Shown: positions 11,726-32,000, counted from the first letter of the stretch. The stretch: DNA of 32,000 bases from Pseudoalteromonas tetraodonis (GCF_002310835.1 NZ_CP011041.1:2490001-2522000); one strand, 5' to 3'. Numbers and translations: made by a program. The notes: a model not told the origin generated them from the letters alone.

Positions 11726-11741
11726 TGCAATATAAGTGCCA
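11726..11741 (-). promoter_or_regulatory. Sigma54 promoter for flgF and downstream genes
   Basis: The minus strand reads TGGCAC-ttata-TTGCA, a perfect match to TGGCAC-N5-TTGCA. The -12 element lies about 37 nt upstream of the flgF ATG. Confidence 0.8.
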
Positions 11742-18405: not shown

Positions 18406-18867
18406 TTAGTAATAAGTGACTTTTTTCACTTCCCGTGGTTTTATCTCACCGATGTACAAGTCGTGTACGCGCTTCATATTAAGCTCAAGCTCAGTAATAT
18501 ACATATCATTAACGGCATAAGTTTTTATAATTTGCGCGCCTTTTATAATACCTTGCACTTTACTCTGTAAATAATCATCTTGGGCAACAGAGCCTGCGAC
18601 GGTTGTGCCTGCGGTAATTTTTTGCCCGTACACTTGTTCCGTTAGTTCGCGGTATGCTTCTAGCTTGGAGGCTTTAATTGCCATAAGCTGTTTTTGAGTG
18701 TCATTACTTCCCGACTGCAAACTAATGGGCGCGTACCCTATTGCTTTTAATACAGGGTAATTATTTGGCTCAACATATTTATATTCAACGTGCTTATCAA
18801 ATATATTGCTACAACCGCTTAACGTTAAGCAGCCTAATGTGATCATTAATGGCATTACTCGCATCAT
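18406..18867 (-). CDS. flgP: Flagellar H-ring lipoprotein FlgP (LPP20 family)
   Basis: 153 aa with lipobox LTLSGC. The LPP20-type core is AIGYAPISLQSGSNDTQKQLMAIKASKLEAYRELTEQVYGQKI...VQGIIKGAQI. It lies next to flgN and flgT, as in Vibrio. Confidence 0.82.
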   Translation of the reverse strand: MMRVMPLMITLGCLTLSGCSNIFDKHVEYKYVEPNNYPVLKAIGYAPISLQSGSNDTQKQLMAIKASKLEAYRELTEQVYGQKITAGTTVAGSVAQDDYLQSKVQGIIKGAQIIKTYAVNDMYITELELNMKRVHDLYIGEIKPREVKKVTYY

Positions 18868-18900: not shown

Positions 18901-18916
18901 TGCACGTTTAATGCCA
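18901..18916 (-). promoter_or_regulatory. Sigma54-type promoter candidate for flgP
   Basis: The minus strand reads TGGCAT-taaac-GTGCA with GG-N10-GC spacing. The -12 element lies about 34 nt upstream of the flgP ATG at 18867. Confidence 0.5.
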
Positions 18917-18949: not shown

Positions 18950-18965
18950 TGGTACATTACTTGCT
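18950..18965 (+). promoter_or_regulatory. Sigma54-type promoter candidate for flgT
   Basis: The plus strand reads TGGTAC-attac-TTGCT with GG-N10-GC spacing. The -12 element lies about 40 nt upstream of the flgT ATG at 19004. Confidence 0.6.
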
Positions 18966-19003: not shown

Positions 19004-20191
19004 ATGAAGTCGTTTTTAAAAGCAGTATTGGCAGGATTAAGCACCACTGCTGTATTAACGTTTTCACCTTTTACCCACGCTCAGTGGTATGAATCTACTG
19101 GCCATGCGGTTATTCAAAATAGCGACATTCCCGGTGCAAAGGCCGCTGCAATAAAAGATGCGATTACCCAAGCCCTTGTATTCTCTGGTGCGCGGGTGAG
19201 CTCGGTGCAAACGCTTGTTGATGGTGTTTTAACCCAAGATCAGCTAAAAATAAGTAGCCAAGGCGAAATTCAAAAAATAGAGCTTGTCAGTGAAAACCGC
19301 AGTAGTGATGAGTTTGCAATTACCTTACGCTTAGATATCTTTGCGCAAACAGAGCAATGTCCACAAAGTAACTTTAATAAGTTTATAGCCGTCACGCAAA
19401 GCCAATTAACAAATCGTGAACAAGCGAGAATGGGTCAAATATTTGACATTAACAAAGCAGTCAGTAAAAACATTTATACCTCGTTGCAAAAATCAAAAAT
19501 GAGTGCAATACCCGTTGCCTATTTCAACAAAGCTATAAAGGTTGATACCTACTTTAATCAGCAGCATGACTATTCAAACAGTCAGTTAGAAGAAATTTCA
19601 TCACGCAGCAACGCGCAATATGTGCTGTTAAGTCAAATAACCAGTTTATCTACCAGCGATAAACTCAATAGCGACTATGCGTTTTGGCAAGATGAAAGCT
19701 ATCAGCGCCACTACCAAATAGAGTTTAGCTTATTTAATGGCACCACTTATGAGCCTTTATGGCAAAATAGCTATCAAAGCCAAGCAATTTGGCCATTTGA
19801 AAAAACAGCCATTATTGATGTAAATAGTAATCGGTTTTGGCAATCACCTTTTGGCCAAAGCATTAGTGATATAAACCAAACCTTAAGTTACGACCTACAA
19901 GCCGCCATGGCCTGCCTACCTACTCAAGGTAAAATAATGCATATGGAAAACAATAAATTAGTGATTAATTTAGGTAAGGCTCATGGCTTAGAAAAAGGCC
20001 AACAACTGAGTATTGCCCATCATAATTATTTAACCGACGCACAAGGCAACACTATGCCGCATACCATCACTACACTTAACCGTATACGAATTGAGCAGCT
20101 TTATCAGCACAGCGCTATTGCCGTTAGTATTAATGATCAGCCTTTGCCGGGCGTACAAATTAATGACATTGTAGAAATTGCCGAGCAATAG
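19004..20191 (+). CDS. flgT: Flagellar H-ring protein FlgT
   Basis: 395 aa with a signal peptide ending FTHA-QW. The N-terminal segment WYESTGHAVIQNSDIPGAKAAAIKDAITQALVFSGARVSS resembles Vibrio FlgT as I remember it. The gene is divergent from flgP. Confidence 0.75.
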   Translation: MKSFLKAVLAGLSTTAVLTFSPFTHAQWYESTGHAVIQNSDIPGAKAAAIKDAITQALVFSGARVSSVQTLVDGVLTQDQLKISSQGEIQKIELVSENRSSDEFAITLRLDIFAQTEQCPQSNFNKFIAVTQSQLTNREQARMGQIFDINKAVSKNIYTSLQKSKMSAIPVAYFNKAIKVDTYFNQQHDYSNSQLEEISSRSNAQYVLLSQITSLSTSDKLNSDYAFWQDESYQRHYQIEFSLFNGTTYEPLWQNSYQSQAIWPFEKTAIIDVNSNRFWQSPFGQSISDINQTLSYDLQAAMACLPTQGKIMHMENNKLVINLGKAHGLEKGQQLSIAHHNYLTDAQGNTMPHTITTLNRIRIEQLYQHSAIAVSINDQPLPGVQINDIVEIAEQ

Positions 20192-24517: not shown

Positions 24518-24530
24518 GTTATAGCCACGA

Positions 24531-24551
24531 GGTTCGGGGTTCGGGGTTCGG
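24531..24551. repeat. Heptanucleotide microsatellite (GGTTCGG)x3
   Basis: Three perfect tandem copies read directly, starting 14 nt after the DHH gene stop. Confidence 0.9.
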
Positions 24552-24565
24552 CAAAGTATTTTATA

Positions 24566-24596
24566 AAGCGGGCTAATTGATAGCTCGCTTTTTTAT
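24566..24596 (+). terminator. Rho-independent terminator after the DHH gene
   Basis: 9-bp stem aagcgggct (24566-24574) / agctcgctt (24582-24590) with one G-T pair, followed by ttttatt. Confidence 0.7.
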
Positions 24597-24847
24597 TATG
24601 AAAAATTTAATGGAGGGCTTCTTTGAGAGAAATATAGTCATTCGGGTGAGTCATCATTAACTTAGTAAGAATAGGAGGAAACTTTCCTATTTTTACATGT
24701 TTATATAAGTTACATAAGGCATAATATTTATAGCTGGCAATAGCTTACACTATTTGCTATTAATACAAGTTCATAAAATAAGGATGTTTTCGCGCTAAAG
24801 TAGGGGAAGTGTTCTCTGATAAAGCTGTTATGTTTCAAGGAGAGTTT

Positions 24848-25186
24848 GTGAGTCAATATGAAATAATAAGCACTTCAATTGCTTTAATTGCTTTAATTGC
24901 AGTATGTGTTTCTTTTATGGCAATAGTACGAACTCGTAAACTATCAGAAAAACAATTAGCGTTTGAAAAAACAAATGCTAAGTTGTCTGCTCTAGCTATT
25001 CTAGTTTCAGAATATAAATCTTAAGCAGAATCAATTAGAGTTGCGTTAAATGATGGCACTATCGAGATAGAAAACCTATCTAGAATTGGTATGGAAAACG
25101 CTTTAGATGAAGTTCTCGACAAACAATATAAAGCTATTGAGGATATAGAAAAAATACTAATTACTCATCAAGCAACTGAAACATAA
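24848..25186 (+). pseudogene. Small single-pass membrane / coiled-coil protein ORF interrupted by an in-frame TAA at 25022-25024
   Basis: AAGGAG SD at 24837-24842, then GTG at 24848 (alternative ATG at 24830). The ORF encodes a TM helix (IISTSIALIALIAVCVSFMAIV) and stops at TAA 25022. The same frame stays open for 53 more codons (AESIRVALNDGTIEIENLSRIGMENALDEVLDKQYKAIEDIEKILITHQATET) to TAA 25184-25186. I verified the frame by hand. Confidence 0.45.
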
Positions 25187-25371
25187 CAAGCGAATAAGTC
25201 AGGACTAAAAACTGTTGGCTTTTGCTCCTGCCTCGCTTATTTTAGTCAACCATTTTTAGCCCATGATTATGGGCGTTACCAATCTAAACTGTTGGCACTC
25301 AGCCGATAGTCGTTATAGAGTGGTTTAACTTACAGTGTAAAGCAGTTGTTTCTGGTAGATTCATCATTTTT

Positions 25372-25447
25372 GTCGGATGGCGTGGCTCCGCCACTTATCC
25401 GACCTACGTCAAAATGTAGGTTGGTTAAGCCGAAGGCGCCACCCAAC
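25372..25447. repeat. Inverted pair of REP-like palindromic elements (BIME-like)
   Basis: REP1 at 25372-25407 is GTCGGATGGCGTGGCTCCGCCACTTATCCGACCTAC, with outer stem GTCGGAT/ATCCGAC and inner stem GTGGC/GCCAC. REP2 at 25416-25447 is GTAGGTTGGTTAAGCCGAAGGCGCCACCCAAC in the opposite orientation. The tails (CTTATCCGACCTAC) resemble the enterobacterial REP consensus tail CTTATCCGGCCTAC. Confidence 0.75.
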
Positions 25448-25559
25448 AGGCTTTCAAATTCACTTTTCATCCGCACATGGCACATAGCTGACATTGCTAC
25501 AAATATACTACATAGAGTTGGGATAGGAATAGAGAGAAAAAATAACCCATTGATTTAAT

Positions 25560-25634
25560 TGGTAGCCCCTGCAGGAATCGAACCTGCAACTGCCCCTTAG
25601 GAGGGGGCCGTTATATCCATTTAACTAAGAGGCC
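25560..25634 (-). tRNA. argW: tRNA-Arg (anticodon CCT)
   Basis: I folded a 75-nt cloverleaf by hand from the reverse complement. Acceptor stem is GGCCTCT/AGGGGCT with G1-U72 and U5-G68 wobbles. D stem is GTTA/TAAC with GG in the loop. Anticodon stem is GCCCC/GGGGC with loop CTCCTAA. T arm is GCAGG-TTCGATT-CCTGC, followed by an encoded ACCA end. It is nearly identical in the D, anticodon and T arms to E. coli argW as I recall it. Confidence 0.93.
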
Positions 25635-25708: not shown

Positions 25709-26386
25709 TTAATTGCTTGATAAATATATATCTTCTTTATTTAATACGTAAAGCGGTATAAATGTTCGGCTGCTGGCTGCTAAACGTTTGCTTTGAATAT
25801 CAATAACGCGTGCGTTTATTTCTACCCCGTCCTCTCTATAAATAAGGGTGCCTGACAATACATGGCTGGCTATACTGGTACCAGCAAGTTTGCGAGTGTT
25901 TCGTGTAAAGGCAAAATCGCCTTGCTTATTTACGGTAATTAAATTGGCTGTTTTAAAATCAACGGCGCTATAACCAAACTTTTGTAGCTGATGTATAAAG
26001 GTTTCTGATAACTGATTACCTAACTGGCTTGCTGTAGTTAAACTTGCGTCTAAATCAACGAACGACGTAACCGCAATCGCTGCATCTTGAGGGGCTACTT
26101 GCATGGTGTCGGTTAAATCAAGTGCCATTTGCTCAACGTAATTAACTAAGCTTTTGTGGTGCTTGTTTGGATTAAATTGCGTTGTATCAGCATATTGCTC
26201 TTGCTCGTCATTGCGCTGCATTTGCGCCATGATCTGGTTAAAATCAAGATCACTTACCACTGTTTGCTCTGGCTCAGATTTGGCGGGTTCGGCCATGCTA
26301 GATTCACCAAGTAAATTACAGCCTGAAAGTAATAATGATAATGCACTTATGCTAATTAAAGCTGAGCGCTTAGCTAAGTTAGCCAT
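25709..26386 (-). CDS. FlgO/LpoB-like outer-membrane lipoprotein, paralog 3
   Basis: Lipobox LLLSGC. The core is IAVTSFVDLD...LGNQLSETFIHQLQKFGYSAVDFK...GDFAFTRN...HVLSGTLIYREDGVEINARVID...FIP. I set the start at the ATG at 26386, with GAGG 6 nt upstream overlapping the paralog-2 stop. The family call rests on motif memory only. Confidence 0.7.
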   Translation of the reverse strand: MANLAKRSALISISALSLLLSGCNLLGESSMAEPAKSEPEQTVVSDLDFNQIMAQMQRNDEQEQYADTTQFNPNKHHKSLVNYVEQMALDLTDTMQVAPQDAAIAVTSFVDLDASLTTASQLGNQLSETFIHQLQKFGYSAVDFKTANLITVNKQGDFAFTRNTRKLAGTSIASHVLSGTLIYREDGVEINARVIDIQSKRLAASSRTFIPLYVLNKEDIYLSSN

Positions 26387-26394
26387 GATAAACC

Positions 26395-27072
26395 TCACTT
26401 ACTCGCTTGTTTTAGCATGATGCCATCAGCACTGTTACTGCTATTTAACGCGTCGATCACTGATTGCGGAATAAAGCCCTGTGCAGAGCCTACAACCGCT
26501 TTACTCGCTAAACCAACAATACGTGCGTTTACTAGTATGCCACCTTGGTGGTTTACTAGCGTGCCGGCTAATACGTAACTAAAATTTTGTTCTTGGTTAA
26601 GCTCTAAGTAGTCGCGACTAAAAACAAAATCGCCGCCAGGTGTTACACGCATATAATCGGTGGTTTTAAAATCGATTACCGGTACACCAAAATTATGCAG
26701 CTCATGCATAAAGCTCTCTGCTATTTGGTTACCCACTAAGTCAGCATTGTTGTAGTCACGGTCTAAAAAAACAAAGCTTGATACCGCTAATGGCGTTTTA
26801 GTATTTACGTACTGTAAATTTTCAGCCATGTCTTGCATGATGCCACGCACATAATGATTAATATTTTTACGTGTTGGCGTGTTAACTTGTTTGTTTTTAT
26901 TCATCACTGCTGTTTTATTTTGATACAGCGAGTCGCTTTGTGTAGGTGCGGCTACAGGGCGTTGCTCAAAAAACATAGGCGCATCGTCGGTAATTTGTGT
27001 GTCACTATGGTTTGTCATTTGTGAACAACCAAAGCCTAGTGGCAAACATAAAGTTAATAGTAGGCGTTTCAT
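26395..27072 (-). CDS. FlgO/LpoB-like outer-membrane lipoprotein, paralog 2
   Basis: Signal peptide with Cys (LPLGFGCS). The core is LAVSSFVFLDRDYNNADLVGNQIAESFMHELHNFGVPVIDFKTTDYMRVTPGGDFVFSRDYLEL...YVLAGTLVNHQGGILVNARIVG...FIP. AGGAG lies 5 nt upstream of the ATG. Confidence 0.7.
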   Translation of the reverse strand: MKRLLLTLCLPLGFGCSQMTNHSDTQITDDAPMFFEQRPVAAPTQSDSLYQNKTAVMNKNKQVNTPTRKNINHYVRGIMQDMAENLQYVNTKTPLAVSSFVFLDRDYNNADLVGNQIAESFMHELHNFGVPVIDFKTTDYMRVTPGGDFVFSRDYLELNQEQNFSYVLAGTLVNHQGGILVNARIVGLASKAVVGSAQGFIPQSVIDALNSSNSADGIMLKQASK

Positions 27073-27084
27073 GTGTGCTCCTAA

Positions 27085-27678
27085 TTAATATTCACTGCGG
27101 TAAATATAGTCACCGCGCTGCTGTATTTTTTCATTGCTCCACATCACATTGATGGGAATTTCAGTACTGCCGGCAGATACAACTTGGTTGGTTTGCATAT
27201 TTACCATTCGTGCATTAACAATATAAGCATGCTCTTGGCGAGTTAAAGTACCGGTGATGACAAAGTCAATAATCTGACGCTGCTTTAAGTTGCCAGTATT
27301 GCGGCTAAGTACTGAGTCTGCACTCGCTGATAAGTTAAGTTGGTTTTCAAGCCGATATTCAACCGTGTTATAACCTAATTGGGTGAACTGGGTTATTAAG
27401 CTTTCCTGAATCTGCTGGCTAAGCCCTGCCCCCTGCCCTTGAGCAACGTGAGAATCTAGGGCATCTGCTAAATAAAAGCTACTGACCGCAATTGAAGCAG
27501 TGCTTTTAAAAGGCTCTTTAATATGGCTAAGCTGGGCACTTAAGCTACTTACGTACTGGTTCACCGTATAAGGTGCCATAACCGCTTTAGGCGCATCAGT
27601 GCTTATACTCGGCTTTGGCTGAGGTGTTAAACTACAGCCCGCTAAATTTAATAATAGTAAGGGTAACAAAAGGCGCAT
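27085..27678 (-). CDS. FlgO/LpoB-like outer-membrane lipoprotein, paralog 1
   Basis: Canonical lipobox NLAGCS. The core is IAVSSFYLAD...LSQQIQESLITQFTQLGYNTVEYR...VLSRN...FVITGTLTRQEHAYIVNARMVN...EIP. I prefer the ATG at 27678 as start, with AGGA 8 nt upstream. The ORF-track ATG at 27687 has no usable spacing. Confidence 0.7.
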   Translation of the reverse strand: MRLLLPLLLLNLAGCSLTPQPKPSISTDAPKAVMAPYTVNQYVSSLSAQLSHIKEPFKSTASIAVSSFYLADALDSHVAQGQGAGLSQQIQESLITQFTQLGYNTVEYRLENQLNLSASADSVLSRNTGNLKQRQIIDFVITGTLTRQEHAYIVNARMVNMQTNQVVSAGSTEIPINVMWSNEKIQQRGDYIYRSEY

Positions 27679-27712
27679 AGTTGCCATCCTCTAAAAACAT
27701 AATAACAACAAA

Positions 27713-27727
27713 GCAATTATTATGCCG
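27713..27727 (-). promoter_or_regulatory. Sigma54-type promoter candidate in front of the FlgO-like gene trio
   Basis: The minus strand reads CGGCAT-aataa-TTGCT with GG-N10-GC spacing. The -12 element lies about 35 nt upstream of the ATG at 27678, the same geometry as the flgB, flgF, flgJ, flgP and flgT candidates. Confidence 0.5.
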
Positions 27728-27745
27728 AATACCCTTGTCACATAT

Positions 27746-28408
27746 TTATTTTAAAGGCTGCTGGGTGTAATGACTCACAATGCAGTTGATTTGGCGCTGT
27801 TTAAGTTTATCGCAATCAGCAGCCGCATTCGCTTGTTCCTGATAAGCCCCAAGCTTTAAACGGTAGTAAGTTATGCCACTCACGTTGATAGTTTCTACAT
27901 TCGCCACAAATTCCCCCTCAAATAACGAAGATGCGCTGGCTTTTATTTCATTTAAACTTTGGCTAAGTCGGTCTTTGTCGGTAACGGCTGCAACTTGGAG
28001 GGCAAACAGCGCTTTAACGGCTTGTTTTTCATCAGCTGCTGCATTCGTTGCCATTTGAGCTTTTTGTGCTACTTTTGGTGATACCGTTTCAGCTGAAGCT
28101 TTAGCTGTTGGTACTACAGGCGTATTTGTTGATGCGGTGTCTTGATTTGCCACCGCATTTAATTGGCTTATTAATAGCTTTAAGTCTTGTTCAATAACTA
28201 ATAGACGCTCAACACCTGCTTTGGCTGCTTGCCACTGTTGAGACGATGCTTTTAGCTGCGCTAACTCCTCATCAGAAAGGCTTGCACTGGCTTGTTTAGG
28301 CTGAGGCGACTCTACTGTTGTTTTGGGACTGCTGCATCCAGATATAAAAAGAGCACCAATACAGGCGATGAGTATTGAATAGCGTTTATATAAATTAGCA
28401 TGTTGCAT
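27746..28408 (-). CDS. SPOR-domain lipoprotein with a coiled-coil linker
   Basis: 220 aa with lipobox LFISGCS. The middle is helical and rich in Gln and Ala. The C-terminal SPOR-like segment is ALFALQVAAVTDKDRLSQSLNEIKA...ITYYRLKLGAYQEQANAAADCDKLKQRQINCIV. Confidence 0.8.
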   Translation of the reverse strand: MQHANLYKRYSILIACIGALFISGCSSPKTTVESPQPKQASASLSDEELAQLKASSQQWQAAKAGVERLLVIEQDLKLLISQLNAVANQDTASTNTPVVPTAKASAETVSPKVAQKAQMATNAAADEKQAVKALFALQVAAVTDKDRLSQSLNEIKASASSLFEGEFVANVETINVSGITYYRLKLGAYQEQANAAADCDKLKQRQINCIVSHYTQQPLK

Positions 28409-28426
28409 GGTTAAACCTTATTGTTA

Positions 28427-31400
28427 TTAGTGGCTAATAAGTTGCGCTTGGACTTGGCAGTTCAAGCCTTTCACTTTTAATTCTGCGCATACTTGTTCAA
28501 GCTCTCCTTGGGCAGACTCGGCATAAGCGACGGCTAAAATATACCGTTTTTGTTTATCGTCTTTAATATAAAAAGCATCACGCTTTGATTGCTCATTTAA
28601 ATGACGTTTAATTAATTGATAATACGCTTTCATAATCGGCAATGATGAAAACCCACCCGCATTGGCAATATACGCTGGCGTTTGTGTTTTTTCTTTCAGT
28701 TCAAAGTCAACGCCCATTACTACTTCACCTTGCGCTGGTAAATTCACCATTACTTGTTGCGTATCTTTTAAGGACTTACGTTGCTTAAACTCATCATCTA
28801 TAACCGCTTTATATTCGCCAGGGCGTAAATCGGTAAACAAATAATAGCCATCATAGGCAGCTTGAGTTTGCGCCACTTGCTTACCTTGTTTATCGAGTAA
28901 TTTAACGGTAGCAAAAGGCTGCACTTCACTGCTGCCTTGCTCATCTCGTTTGTAAACAGTTCCCTCCAATTCACTACTGTGATTAAGCGGTATTTCCATA
29001 TATTCAACAAAACCGGCACGCGGTGTAATTGAAAAGCCATCGTTGGCGGCAACTAAAAAAGGATCGTTAATAGTGCCAGGCTCAATCACTATGTCGGTGG
29101 TTAAGTTAGCCGACATACCCGATAATAAAGCCATGCCGTTTTTATCAGTAACAGCTCTTCGATAGTTTTGTAGCCCTTTAACTTTTACGCCTTCTAAATT
29201 TTGCTCACCATCGTCATAAATACCATTATTATTTTCATCAAGGTAAACATGCACTATTAGCGAACCCGACTGCACTAAGCTGCGCCTGTTTATAAAGTAG
29301 TCATTATTTTTACTGTTAAACCCTAAGCTAAAGCGTCCAAATAAGCCAATGCGCCAATTGTCATTAGTGTCGTAATTAACCTTGCTATTTAAACTAAATA
29401 AATCTGTTTGCCAGTTTAGTCCTAGCTCAGCAAACTTAATCTCAGTTTGTAATGCATGCGTAAGCTTTAGCTCTGCTTGTAAATTTGATGTAAGTGAGCG
29501 GCTAAACTCGGTTTCATAGCTGGTAATTTCGCTAGTCGGCTCTAAAGAATAGTTGATGTTAAAACGCGTTCCCAAACGCCCAAAGCGTTTTTGTAAACGA
29601 CTAGTGCCAGAAAAAAGATTGTTGTCGCTCCATTGTAGATTATTATTAAATGCATATCCGCCAGCGGTATAATTTAAAATATTACCAAACCTCACTATGC
29701 TATCTCTAACATCGCTATTGATGTAACTCGCGGTGTTTTGATAACTTAATCGACCATAACTATTTTCCATTAAGTTACCTGAAAAAAACAATTCGTAATT
29801 TTCTGTGTCATTAAATACATTATTATTTTGCTGAACTTGGCCTTGTAGTTCAGAGGCTTTGCGGAGGCTGAACCTTACTGACTGTCCTAAAATTTCAGAG
29901 CGCGTAGAAAGCTTTAATTCTTTTTCTTCAAGGGTATTTTGTTCATAATCTAAATTAATGAGCACTTTGTTGAGTACACTTAAGTTAGAGCCAAATGCAT
30001 AGTTAGTTAGGTTTTCTGCATCATCACTTTTTAGTGCAGAAACTCCCGTATAAACAGAGAAGTAATCAGTTATGCCTTTTTCGTAGCGCCCTGATAAAAG
30101 CCAACCTTCTTCACCTGCTATGGTATTGCCAGAATTTAATAACTGCTCTCCTTGCTGAGTAAGTGATAGTTCATAAAAACCATCTCCCCTTTCTAAGCTA
30201 TTACCATCAATGAGGTATTCTTCAACTTTACGCTCCACCTCTCCTTGTGGGCCATAAAATATGAGCTCAAAAGTGTTAGCACCAAATAATAAGTCAACAT
30301 TTTCAAATAGATAGCGCCCATCAGGTAAGCTAAGCTGCTGATCGATCAAAATATTATTTCGATATAACTCTACATCCCAACCAGCTTGCACTGCTCCCGT
30401 TAAAGTTATTTGATTGCTGTTTATTTCTTTGTAAAGCGGTTTATTATTTACTTTAACGCCGCGCGCATAATTGCTTTTAAAGCGAGTGCCAATTTGTGTT
30501 GCAAGTACATCACCAAACTCAATACTTGTCGCGTTGAGTGGGCCAAGTAAATTACCTTCAGCGTTTTCCCGGTTAAATGAAAGCCGTGAATCTTTTAATA
30601 AATCGCCATTGCTACCGGCTAAATAGTATTCGCTGTTAAAGTAGGCCAAATCTTGCGAACCTAATATGGCATAGTTTAATGTGTTGTCATTATTTGTTGC
30701 TGTGTAGCTTAGTTGTACATCAGCCACAGGTGACGACATTGCTTGATAAGGACTTGGTTTCCACGGTAGTGTGGGCGTTTTATCGGGTGAACTTGTGTAT
30801 AAGGTACGCTGTTGCCGCTGTAGTTTTTTTTCTATGGGGAGGGTTACAGTTGGTGATAAACCTAATTTTAAGGAGCTATAATTAGCAATCATTCCTAATC
30901 CAAACCAGCGGTTTAACACTTCTATATCTATAAATATATCACCGGCATCTATATAGTAATCGGATTCATTAAGGCGCTGTTTTTCTGTGCTTAACTGCAC
31001 AGTTTTATTATTAATATTTAAATTAAAAATGTTATTCGGCGAAATATACCACCCTTGTGCCATTAACGAATCGCGATCAACATTAACAGCAAAATTAAGT
31101 AACTCAAATAAACTACTTAGTTCAATCCATGCACCATTTTCATTTTTAATCGCAATTATCTCGCCTAAGTAATATTTATCCAAGTAAGTTGAAAAAAACA
31201 GTAGCTCACCAACAGGAATGCCTATGAGGTTTTGGTCTGTTGTTGCTGATGATGTATTACTTAACGAACCACTGGTATCGTTAAAAGCATCAATTACAAC
31301 AATTTTGTCCGATGAAATATCTTTTGTTGTATCAGAATTACCTTGCTTTTCCCTTAAGCTTTGCCATTTTTTTTCAATATTAAAAAGCGTGTTGTAAACA

Positions 31401-31495
31401 GCCTCATTATTTTGCTGCGCAGCAAACACACTAAAGCCCAATATCCATAAAGGTATTAGGCTTGCGTAAAAAACGGAGCGAGTAAGTAAGGTCAG
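28427..31495 (-). CDS. Large outer-membrane protein: usher-like N-domain, barrel and plug-like segment, two carboxypeptidase-regulatory/Cna-B-like beta-sandwiches, and a C-terminal SPOR-like domain
   Basis: The ORF track gives 28427-31441 (1004 aa, TTG start). Alternating-hydrophobic beta-strand stretches (for example LQAELKLTHALQTEIKFAELGLNWQTDLFSLNSKVNY, WRIGLFGRFSLGF) indicate a barrel. The segment LTGAVQAGWDVELYRNNILIDQQLSLPDGRYLFENVDLLFGANTFELIFYGPQGE recalls the usher plug/middle-domain pattern. IVHVYLDENNNGIYDDGE...GVKV and LEGTVYKRDEQG...VKLLDKQGKQV...DGYYLFTDLRPGEYKAV are beta-sandwich signatures. The tail RYILAVAYAESAQGELEQVCAELKVKGLNCQV is SPOR-like. I extended the 5' end to CTG 31495 so that the signal peptide is complete (see findings). 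Confidence 0.8.
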   Translation of the reverse strand: MTLLTRSVFYASLIPLWILGFSVFAAQQNNEAVYNTLFNIEKKWQSLREKQGNSDTTKDISSDKIVVIDAFNDTSGSLSNTSSATTDQNLIGIPVGELLFFSTYLDKYYLGEIIAIKNENGAWIELSSLFELLNFAVNVDRDSLMAQGWYISPNNIFNLNINNKTVQLSTEKQRLNESDYYIDAGDIFIDIEVLNRWFGLGMIANYSSLKLGLSPTVTLPIEKKLQRQQRTLYTSSPDKTPTLPWKPSPYQAMSSPVADVQLSYTATNNDNTLNYAILGSQDLAYFNSEYYLAGSNGDLLKDSRLSFNRENAEGNLLGPLNATSIEFGDVLATQIGTRFKSNYARGVKVNNKPLYKEINSNQITLTGAVQAGWDVELYRNNILIDQQLSLPDGRYLFENVDLLFGANTFELIFYGPQGEVERKVEEYLIDGNSLERGDGFYELSLTQQGEQLLNSGNTIAGEEGWLLSGRYEKGITDYFSVYTGVSALKSDDAENLTNYAFGSNLSVLNKVLINLDYEQNTLEEKELKLSTRSEILGQSVRFSLRKASELQGQVQQNNNVFNDTENYELFFSGNLMENSYGRLSYQNTASYINSDVRDSIVRFGNILNYTAGGYAFNNNLQWSDNNLFSGTSRLQKRFGRLGTRFNINYSLEPTSEITSYETEFSRSLTSNLQAELKLTHALQTEIKFAELGLNWQTDLFSLNSKVNYDTNDNWRIGLFGRFSLGFNSKNNDYFINRRSLVQSGSLIVHVYLDENNNGIYDDGEQNLEGVKVKGLQNYRRAVTDKNGMALLSGMSANLTTDIVIEPGTINDPFLVAANDGFSITPRAGFVEYMEIPLNHSSELEGTVYKRDEQGSSEVQPFATVKLLDKQGKQVAQTQAAYDGYYLFTDLRPGEYKAVIDDEFKQRKSLKDTQQVMVNLPAQGEVVMGVDFELKEKTQTPAYIANAGGFSSLPIMKAYYQLIKRHLNEQSKRDAFYIKDDKQKRYILAVAYAESAQGELEQVCAELKVKGLNCQVQAQLISH

Positions 31496-32000
31496 TTTAG
31501 TAATCCTACTGAGTTTGTATTAATAGACACTGTTTTTTCTGCAAATATTGTATTGCGATATTCTTTTAGCCCTGTATAAACTATTCGTAATTTACCTGGC
31601 CCTGTAATTGCGTTGTTTTCAAAAAAATTGAGCGTGAGTTCTGGCTGCAACACCTCAGGATAAATACTTAAGCTACCAACCATCGCCACTTTTACTTCTT
31701 TATCGCTGTTGTTTGCTTTGTAAAAAGCTTCAATATTACCGAAGGTACTGTACTCACCTTTTCTTTGCATTGAAACATGTAATGATTTTTTTCCTTGGTC
31801 ATTACTTAGTGCAATGCTTTTTATGTCAACCTCCGGTAATTTTGACCCTTGGCGCAAAAGTACAGGAATCGAATAACTCAAAATAAGATCAATTTTAATG
31901 CCTATTGCCTGTGTGGCTTTTTTGTTTTCATTTGGTAGGGCTTGAAACAATAAGTGAGAGCGATACTCCTGCTCTGCTAAGTTTTGTGGCCTTCTTAGCA
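31492..32000 (-). CDS. PapD-like periplasmic pilus chaperone, C-terminal ~170 aa (5' end beyond the window)
   Basis: The reading frame is open to the window edge (LRRPQNLAEQEYRSHLLFQALPNE...). The pattern EYRSHLLFQALPNE...IGIKIDLILSYSIPVLLRQG resembles the chaperone DRESLFWLN..EIP...IKLFYRP signature. The gene sits immediately upstream of the usher-like gene and overlaps it. Confidence 0.55.
   Translation of the reverse strand, partial: LRRPQNLAEQEYRSHLLFQALPNENKKATQAIGIKIDLILSYSIPVLLRQGSKLPEVDIKSIALSNDQGKKSLHVSMQRKGEYSTFGNIEAFYKANNSDKEVKVAMVGSLSIYPEVLQPELTLNFFENNAITGPGKLRIVYTGLKEYRNTIFAEKTVSINTNSVGLLN

Follow-up and report, generated by a model that had tools for sequence, protein, structure and literature searches.

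Six co-directional open reading frames (ORFs) on the minus strand at one end (25709-32000) of a 32,000-nucleotide (nt) stretch of Pseudoalteromonas tetraodonis DNA (GCF_002310835.1, NZ_CP011041.1:2490001-2522000; the whole stretch is called the window hereafter) encode a PapD-like chaperone, an usher-like large protein, a SPOR lipoprotein and three FlgO-family lipoproteins (F1, F2 and F3). These genes probably make up two adjacent and separable modules, that is, a divergent chaperone-usher operon and a FlgO-type operon, and the sequences suggest that the two might be functionally coupled. We regard the modules as separable because (i) most lineages possess the chaperone-usher core without FlgO genes, (ii) pairs of FlgO genes exist without the core and (iii) the FlgO trio has a predicted promoter of its own. 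The chaperone-usher pathway itself is known, whereas this deep variant, with its predicted wall anchor and, in some lineages, its lipoproteins of H-ring type, is new, and the family is widespread, unannotated and structurally unusual.

Relatives of the large protein turned up in at least 592 genomes when a single genome was scanned for each species. Eighty-five loci were collected (L001-L005, from individual look-ups, together with the best 80 loci of the species scan) and their ORFs were searched with iterated hidden Markov models (HMMs), features being counted up to 6 kb from the usher gene in the 60 loci that were fully flanked, i.e. by at least 5 kb on either side. Near the usher gene, 60/60 of these loci have two or more DUF4402 genes and a gene for a PapD-like chaperone, 52/60 a separate SPOR lipoprotein gene and 24/60 FlgO genes (three or more in 19/60). 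Because of these counts, the conserved unit is taken to be the subunits, the chaperone and the SPOR-tailed usher, usually with a SPOR lipoprotein. This core was found in Alteromonadales, Cellvibrionaceae, Vibrio, Marinomonas and Rhodanobacter, in Alphaproteobacteria (Micavibrio, Rhodospirillales, Kiloniellales and Caulobacterales), and also in Bdellovibrionales, Desulfobacteraceae, Nitrospinaceae and Zixibacteria. The original prediction, made from the DNA of the window only, had treated the six genes as a single string, and this part of it does not hold as worded, since the string is not conserved as a whole: in many phyla the core is not accompanied by FlgO genes, FlgO genes are also seen where the core is missing, a promoter of its own is predicted for the trio and F2 looks like an ordinary H-ring FlgO orthologue.

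An usher-like protein with a SPOR-like tail

The large protein (28427-31441, minus strand; 1004 residues from the first TTG) is predicted to be an usher with the FimD/PapC order of parts. Its AlphaFold2 model, built on 54 homologues, has a mean predicted local distance difference test (pLDDT) score of 84.4, and FimD/PapC account for all of its top 18 Foldseek matches in the PDB (E down to 3.4e-25), the alignment to full-length FimD/PapC spanning ~900 columns and barrel-only PapC/FimD structures giving E values of 1e-12 to 2e-15 and template modelling (TM) scores of 0.56-0.58. The next kinds of protein in that ranking are SdrD (3e-10) and LptD (~5e-6). The strands assigned by DSSP place, one after the other, a conserved helix (residues 13-33), a mixed domain at the position of the usher N-terminal periplasmic domain (~75-200; 30842-31219, minus strand like all parts of this gene), six long strands, a six-strand insert (~344-411; 30209-30412) and eighteen more long strands to residue ~718, which would form a 24-strand beta-barrel (~235-720; 29282-30739) with a plug after strand 6. 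PapC/FimD reportedly have this very topology, i.e. 24 strands and a plug after strand 6. Two beta-sandwiches (726-820 and 823-917; 28691-29266), recognised from Pfam and secondary structure, then stand in the position of the usher domains CTD1 and CTD2, and a beta-alpha-beta-beta-alpha-beta domain (920-1003) closes the protein. The usher-like order of parts that had been proposed is thus borne out by the Foldseek ranking and by this succession of strands, plug and domains. The most conserved motif of the family, GWDVELYRN...FELIFYGPQG, sits in the plug, a region in which the columns W355, E358, Y360, Y396 and G397-G400 are invariant.

At the level of sequence, the large protein has no match to Usher (PF00577) in Pfam or NCBIfam at E up to 1, and PDB sequence searches with the protein and with the 54-sequence profile found no usher. 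Its Pfam matches are SdrD_B (44 bits) and CarboxypepD_reg (27 bits), both within residues ~826-882. Of the Pfam families originally anticipated in the string, CarboxypepD_reg, SPOR (in the lipoprotein), FlgO (three times) and PapD_N (in the full-length chaperone) were found, whereas Usher and PapD_C were not. Since these are its sole Pfam matches, since LptD structures match its model too (E ~5e-6) and since its homologues are named 'MSCRAMM family', 'carboxypeptidase regulatory-like' or 'porin family' in databases (others being 'hypothetical' or 'SPOR domain-containing'), the protein could be taken for another large barrel (LptD-like or porin) or for a surface adhesin. However, ushers match 19 orders of magnitude better than LptD and over all domains, the gene is always beside genes for a PapD-like chaperone and pilin-like proteins, and the SdrD_B-type matches are limited to one short stretch. 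That the protein is something other than an usher is extremely improbable, the LptD-like, porin and adhesin identities having been rejected on the Foldseek ranking and the gene context.

The last domain of the usher (~920-1004; 28430-28684) has the predicted secondary structure of a SPOR domain. It is called SPOR-like by homology because the copy in the window is too divergent to match whereas orthologues do match: the C-terminal domain passes Pfam SPOR in 3/10 relatives (25-32 bits against a cut-off of 21), and precomputed PF05036 matches are recorded on several usher homologues. A pairwise phmmer comparison of the C-terminus of the window's usher with the SPOR lipoproteins gave no match. The separate lipoprotein encoded just downstream (27746-28408, minus strand; 220 residues, lipobox ISGC) has a conserved helical module in its N-terminal part and ends in a SPOR domain (Pfam SPOR, 29.1 bits against 21). 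Of the two SPOR calls of the original prediction, that on the lipoprotein stands by direct Pfam match and that on the usher is probable by way of orthologues. SPOR domains of other proteins bind bare glycan strands, which are enriched at division sites. A cell-wall-binding domain fused to or accompanying an outer-membrane export pore is reminiscent of PilQ with its AMIN domains, and the SPOR domains themselves of FtsN, DamX and RlpA, to which weak NCBIfam similarities were seen; unlike in PilQ, the pore here is a predicted usher and not a secretin. The idea that the conserved N-terminal helix of the usher (KKWQ) might be the same module as that of the SPOR lipoproteins (EEWQQLK...) was rejected, an HMM of 79 lipoprotein N-termini having matched 0/88 usher N-termini.

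The start of the usher gene is probably annotated too far downstream. No ATG, GTG or TTG precedes the signal peptide, and TTG 31441, the start of the short form annotated by NCBI, leaves only MGFSVFA ahead of AQQ; read in frame from further upstream, the peptide is LTLLTRSVFYASLIPLWILGFSVFA ahead of AQQ. Two candidate codons are in frame: CTG 31495, which overlaps the stop of the chaperone gene (CTGA) and has an AGGA 8-9 nt upstream, and ATT 31504. Either would restore a normal signal peptide and give an usher of ~1022-1025 residues, and a start at CTG 31495 would point to translational coupling of chaperone and usher. The gap between the two genes, which is 50 nt with the annotated start, becomes an overlap if the upstream start is used.

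Within Pseudoalteromonas the usher is a mosaic: between lineages, its first 700 residues are 16-60% identical and its last 250 residues 94-100% identical, the N-terminal periplasmic domain being the most variable part (16-54%, against 94-100% at the C-terminus). One stretch of 90 residues shows 100% identity among P0004, P0007 and P0014 and a single substitution in P0017. This suggests a recombination breakpoint within the usher gene and a variable cassette composed of the subunits, the chaperone and the N-terminal part of the usher, which is the pattern expected of a surface-structure cassette. Elsewhere the architecture varies as well. In Desulfobacter/Desulfobacteraceae (L002, L048 and L079) the ushers are 1320-1420 residues long with a long extra linker ahead of the SPOR domain, and some of them have a copper-amine-oxidase-N-like domain; chaperone and subunit genes are on the opposite strand in these loci, beside polysaccharide chain-length (GNVR) and tyrosine-kinase-like genes.

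Chaperone, subunits and a proposed mechanism

Upstream of the usher gene, the window contains the C-terminal ~168 codons of the chaperone gene (31492-32000, minus strand), which runs past its edge. As a proxy for the DNA past 32000 we used contig PNCX01000041 of Pseudoalteromonas sp. S3173 (98.9% DNA identity to the window), in which four more genes lie upstream of the chaperone gene and encode two DUF4402-family secreted proteins and two SPOR lipoproteins (24-26 bits against Pfam SPOR). The gene order in S3173 is SPOR lipoprotein(s), two DUF4402 subunits, PapD-like chaperone, usher and a further SPOR lipoprotein. The pilin-like genes that, according to the original prediction, might lie to the right of the window are therefore represented by two DUF4402 genes in this near-identical strain.

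The chaperone fragment within the window has no Pfam match by itself. The full-length protein (295 residues; L001 9063-9950) matches PapD_N with 30.5 bits against a cut-off of 23, as do 32/37 members of its family, which upholds the PapD-like call; its C-terminal domain has no match to Pfam PapD_C. The arginine of its 'PTR' motif (LISPTRIAF) is invariant in the family alignment, and another conserved stretch, 'LRRP...EYRSH', falls inside the window. In PapD-type chaperones this arginine holds the C-terminus of the subunit. A PDB sequence search with the single chaperone found nothing, and one with a chaperone profile gave weak matches only, to WxLIP (7e-4), CupB2 (0.03) and PapD (0.46).

As for the subunits, the 149-residue protein of S3173 scores above the DUF4402 cut-off (37 bits) and the 198-residue protein just below it (23 bits). 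They have a conserved C-terminal 'Y..I.I.Y' strand and, after the signal peptide, an N-terminal strand of alternating hydrophobic residues. The model of the 149-residue subunit (pLDDT 83) is weakly consistent with a pilin fold, its top Foldseek matches being chaperone-usher pilins, that is, Caf1 in complex with its chaperone (E 9e-3) and then CfaB, FimG, FimF and the PapG pilin domain, with TM scores of 0.4-0.5. A search of PDB sequences with the subunit profile gave nothing meaningful, neither subunit matches Pfam SCPU at E up to 1, and no Csu structure is found in the top 50 Foldseek matches of the model. The number of DUF4402 genes is variable, usually two, with four in L026 (Alteromonas facilis) and seven in a row in L085 (Nitrospinaceae).

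The system thus shares with the classical FimC/FimD and PapD/PapC systems (i) the same gene logic, i.e. subunit genes, a PapD-like chaperone and an usher, (ii) the 'TR' arginine motif of the chaperone and (iii), as predicted here, an usher made up of an N-terminal domain, a 24-strand barrel whose plug follows strand 6 and a pair of C-terminal sandwiches. It differs from them by an usher with no detectable similarity to Pfam Usher or to any PDB usher, whose C-terminal sandwiches are of SdrD-B/CarboxypepD_reg type and to which a conserved helix at the N-terminus and a SPOR-type domain at the C-terminus are added, by subunits that belong to DUF4402 and not to the Fimbrial family and by the SPOR lipoproteins that accompany it. 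A likeness may also exist with the archaic Csu (Acinetobacter) and SCPU (the Mcu spore coat of Myxococcus) systems, which have small subunits with a Tyr-rich C-terminal strand, several subunit genes per operon and a wide spread outside enteric bacteria. In contrast to these, neither the subunits nor the usher described here match the corresponding Pfam families (SCPU and Usher), and we know of no described Csu or Mcu system that features SPOR domains.

By analogy with what is known of chaperone-usher systems, the subunits would leave the cytoplasm through Sec, and the chaperone would cap them in the periplasm (donor-strand capping) and deliver them to the N-terminal domain of the usher for polymerisation. 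The plug would then move and the fibre thread out through the 24-strand barrel, which would result in a thin surface fibre. The SPOR-type tail of the usher and one to three SPOR lipoproteins could tether this platform to peptidoglycan, and the SPOR domains may place it at septa and new poles, given that bare glycan strands, to which such domains bind elsewhere, are enriched at division sites. On the side of the FlgO proteins, the Vibrio structure discussed below suggests that F2 may form a lipid-anchored ring under the outer membrane together with FlgP.

In the literature searched, nothing was found on DUF4402 (PF14352), on an usher bearing a SPOR domain or on FlgO genes accompanying a chaperone-usher system, and nothing relevant on chaperone-usher systems in Pseudoalteromonas or on FlgO-like proteins and FlgO paralogues. 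Within that literature, the assertion that no described system has such an usher or such companions has therefore held. Chaperone-usher systems are classified by usher sequence. The present family is invisible to the Usher profile, so its recognition would add a deep branch to the pathway, would provide the first example of an usher with a cell-wall anchor of its own and would give the DUF4402 family a role.

Three FlgO paralogues beside the chaperone-usher cluster

Downstream of the SPOR lipoprotein gene lie the genes for F1 (27085-27687; 200 residues, lipobox LAGC), F2 (26395-27072; 225 residues, lipobox GFGC) and F3 (25709-26398; 229 residues from a GTG, lipobox LSGC), all on the minus strand. 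Each of the three proteins has an N-terminal lipobox and a Pfam FlgO domain (E 1.2e-32, 5.6e-42 and 1.9e-39, respectively), and the original identification of three FlgO-type paralogues was correct. In a neighbour-joining tree of 77 FlgO-type genes from the collected loci (built without bootstrap), the sequences fall into three clades that follow gene position (first, second and third) and not genus, F1, F2 and F3 belonging to clades 1, 2 and 3, respectively. These clades span Pseudoalteromonas, Rheinheimera, Bowmanella and metagenome-assembled genomes (MAGs), and where a genome has two copies, these belong to clades 2 and 3. F1, F2 and F3 thus appear to be ancient paralogues and the trio an ancient module.

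F2 is most likely orthologous to FlgO, an H-ring protein of Vibrio, as judged from sequence comparison. The top 120 sequences of a search for F2 homologues were all close Pseudoalteromonas-type relatives, without Vibrio, and the FlgO chains of V. cholerae in the PDB (9YDS and 9YFG) were therefore used as reference. F2 matches V. cholerae FlgO with 127 bits and aligns to residue 178/192, C-terminal tail included, whereas the matches of F3 (100 bits) and F1 (53 bits) both end before the tail. That F2 is the likely H-ring FlgO is also argued because the window has no flgO beside flgP. In V. cholerae, FlgO and FlgP form concentric C58 rings in situ that are lipid-anchored in the outer membrane, FlgO touches FlgP through a C-terminal loop, and the motor has two unassigned outer ring densities (bioRxiv 10.64898/2025.12.02.691832). 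A BLAST survey published in eLife placed the best FlgO match of P. haloplanktis six locus tags from flgT, and those of Alteromonas macleodii and Paraglaciecola far from flgP and flgT (PMC6375700, the table of which is the only place in the literature searched where P. haloplanktis locus tags were found). The likeness of the trio to the Vibrio H-ring is multiple, i.e. membership of the FlgO family, a match of F2 to FlgO through the tail that contacts FlgP, a sigma54-type promoter and a location next to flgT and flgP in many Pseudoalteromonas. It differs in that there are three ancient paralogues here and one gene in Vibrio, and in that F1-F3 lie outside any flgO-flgP operon and are often embedded in a chaperone-usher cluster, away from flagellar genes.

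The trio appears to have its own predicted sigma54-type promoter. A -24/-12 element, CGGCATAATAATTGCT (27712-27727, minus strand), with two mismatches to the sigma54 consensus (TGGCAC-N5-TTGCW-like), lies in the 58-nt gap ahead of F1. Sites with two mismatches number 37 in the window for 22.5 expected, which makes the single match weak when taken alone. However, a GG-N10-GC/TTGC element is kept at the same place in 15/16 Pseudoalteromonas loci despite diverging flanks, which upholds the putative sigma54-like promoter originally noticed there, and a similar element precedes F1 in a genome that has no chaperone-usher cluster. In the clade of the window only, the SPOR lipoprotein gene at the head of the cluster likewise has a near-consensus sigma54 site, TGGCGCTTTTATTGCA, in front of it; the pigmented Pseudoalteromonas clade has no such site, and no sigma54 site was found ahead of the first subunit gene.

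FlgO genes also occur without the chaperone-usher cluster, either as an F1-F2 pair directly after galU (in a Pseudoalteromonas-like synteny and with a sigma54-like site) or as a convergent F2/F3-like pair beside tamA and tamB (L086 9276-10759 and L087 10001-11457). Where trio and cluster adjoin, which is the case only in Alteromonadales-type bacteria, four arrangements are seen: the FlgO genes are (i) downstream and co-directional in Pseudoalteromonas, (ii) downstream and convergent, with a SPOR lipoprotein gene on either side, in Alteromonas, Bowmanella, Fluctibacter, Lacimicrobium and a Rheinheimera MAG, (iii) upstream and co-directional in Rheinheimera soli, two MAGs and Alteromonas profundi and (iv) upstream and on the opposite strand in Paraglaciecola. 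In these bacteria the two modules, and frequently the polar flagellar cluster as well, have remained neighbours despite several rearrangements, which suggests co-regulation or co-location at the pole.

Several observations weigh against two separable modules of this kind, or against the identities given to their parts. As regards identities, no sequence profile (Pfam Usher, NCBIfam or PDB sequences) ties the large protein to ushers, the usher fold is read from one predicted model, the C-terminus of the window's usher gives no Pfam SPOR match, and every Foldseek match of the subunit is weaker than E 1e-3. As regards separability, the FlgO genes of Alteromonas, Bowmanella, Fluctibacter, Lacimicrobium and Rheinheimera sit within the cluster, have SPOR lipoprotein genes on both sides and are more than 10 kb away from any flagellar gene. 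In addition, the operon of Cellvibrionaceae ends in a gene for a lipoprotein of 438-509 residues in which the N-terminal module of the SPOR lipoprotein is joined to FlgT_M (68-78 bits; L021 4133-5449, L023 13776-15185 and L031 8657-10186), and Cellvibrio japonicus, the only sequenced member covered, has no BLASTP homologues of FlgO, FlgP and FlgT (PMC6375700). Both the SPOR-flanked FlgO genes and the FlgT_M lipoprotein speak for a closer coupling than would be expected of two separable modules.

These last points lead to a view in which all ten genes encode one integrated envelope machine, with a FlgO-type ring or scaffold that lies under the outer membrane and surrounds the usher, much as FlgO and FlgP surround the L-ring, and with the SPOR proteins tying it to the wall, the 'FlgO candidates' of Alteromonadales being chaperone-usher accessories first. 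FlgO genes adjoin the cluster in 24/60 loci, in four arrangements and at least eight genera, sometimes between SPOR lipoprotein genes; the Cellvibrionaceae lipoprotein stands in for the trio at the end of the operon; the best FlgO matches of Alteromonas and Paraglaciecola are far from flgT and flgP (PMC6375700), and their loci collected here have no flagellar genes within 10 kb; and both units have sigma54-type promoters in the clade of the window. We nevertheless consider a single machine unlikely, since the core is without FlgO genes in most lineages, FlgO pairs can be found at the same galU-linked site when the core is absent, a separate promoter is predicted for the trio and F2 keeps the C-terminal tail that contacts FlgP in Vibrio.

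A different possibility is that the chaperone-usher cluster is a flagellar accessory that serves the flagellar base, a sheath or penetration of the outer membrane. The cluster does meet flagellar clusters, by three kinds of junction: beside flgT in Pseudoalteromonas and a gammaproteobacterial MAG, within 8 kb of flgT in Rheinheimera, and at flgL/flagellin genes in Glaciecola. In Glaciecola L053 it is enclosed by the flagellar gene cluster, with flgL on one side and the flagellin genes on the other, and in L066 it is ~1.2 kb from flgL, with no flagellin genes within the fetched locus; the order in both is usher, SPOR lipoprotein, subunit, chaperone and subunit. Sigma54-type promoters are present as well. 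However, most loci, including all those of Alphaproteobacteria, Desulfobacteraceae, Nitrospinaceae and Vibrio, have no flagellar genes within 10 kb, the list of parts is that of a complete and self-sufficient pilus pathway and, to our knowledge, no known flagellar structure contains an usher, none having turned up in the flagellar literature searched either. A role as flagellar accessory is accordingly very unlikely, and one for the usher in the H-ring or sheath, which would rest only on the recurrent neighbourhood, is speculation.

Two adjacent modules, a divergent chaperone-usher operon and a FlgO-type operon, thus remain the reading that we favour. A more ambitious and doubtful idea is that the usher, its SPOR lipoproteins and the lipoproteins of FlgO/FlgT_M type belong to a single outer-membrane complex anchored to peptidoglycan, that is, a pilus platform ringed by H-ring-type proteins at the flagellated pole and under sigma54 control. 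If this were true, H-ring proteins and the platform would share parts or ancestry, and F1 and F3 might explain the ring densities that are unassigned in polar flagellar motors. In any case, the proteins reported as 'FlgO candidates' in Alteromonadales seem to come from an operon of three paralogues that is tied to a chaperone-usher cluster, a point that bears on the protein make-up of the outer rings in sodium-driven polar motors.

Setting of the six genes in the window

A reading of the ORFs of the window verified the six genes and the close spacing reported for them, i.e. 18 nt between usher and SPOR lipoprotein, 58 nt between SPOR lipoprotein and F1, 12 nt between F1 and F2 and, between F2 and F3, a 4-nt overlap or an 8-nt gap if the alternative F3 start ATG 26386 is used. 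The remainder of the window is a polar flagellar cluster, which comprises flaG, two flagellin genes, flgL, K, J, I, H, E and B, and also cheR, cheV, flgA, flgM and flgN. As had been noted, the string is one gene block away from flgP (18406-18867, minus strand) and flgT (19004-20191, plus strand), from which it is separated by LysR, peroxiredoxin-glutaredoxin, Lpd and DHH-type genes, the FlgO trio being 5.5 kb from flgT. The flgP and flgT genes are divergently transcribed with no intervening flgO, unlike the flgO-flgP operon of Vibrio, and their shared intergenic region has sigma54-like sites on both strands (18901-18916 minus and 18950-18965 plus). Further sigma54-like sites precede several flagellar operons, for example a perfect one at 11726-11741.

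At the other end of the string, a tRNA-Arg(CCT) gene (25560-25634, minus strand) lies 75 nt past the stop of F3 and is preceded by a strong sigma70-like promoter match (11/12; 25695-25666). Between the DHH-type gene and this tRNA gene, about 1 kb (24519-25553) contains no long ORF, and strain S3173 has there an unrelated 1.4 kb with a gene for a hypothetical protein of 257 residues, so that this segment is a strain-variable islet beside the tRNA gene.

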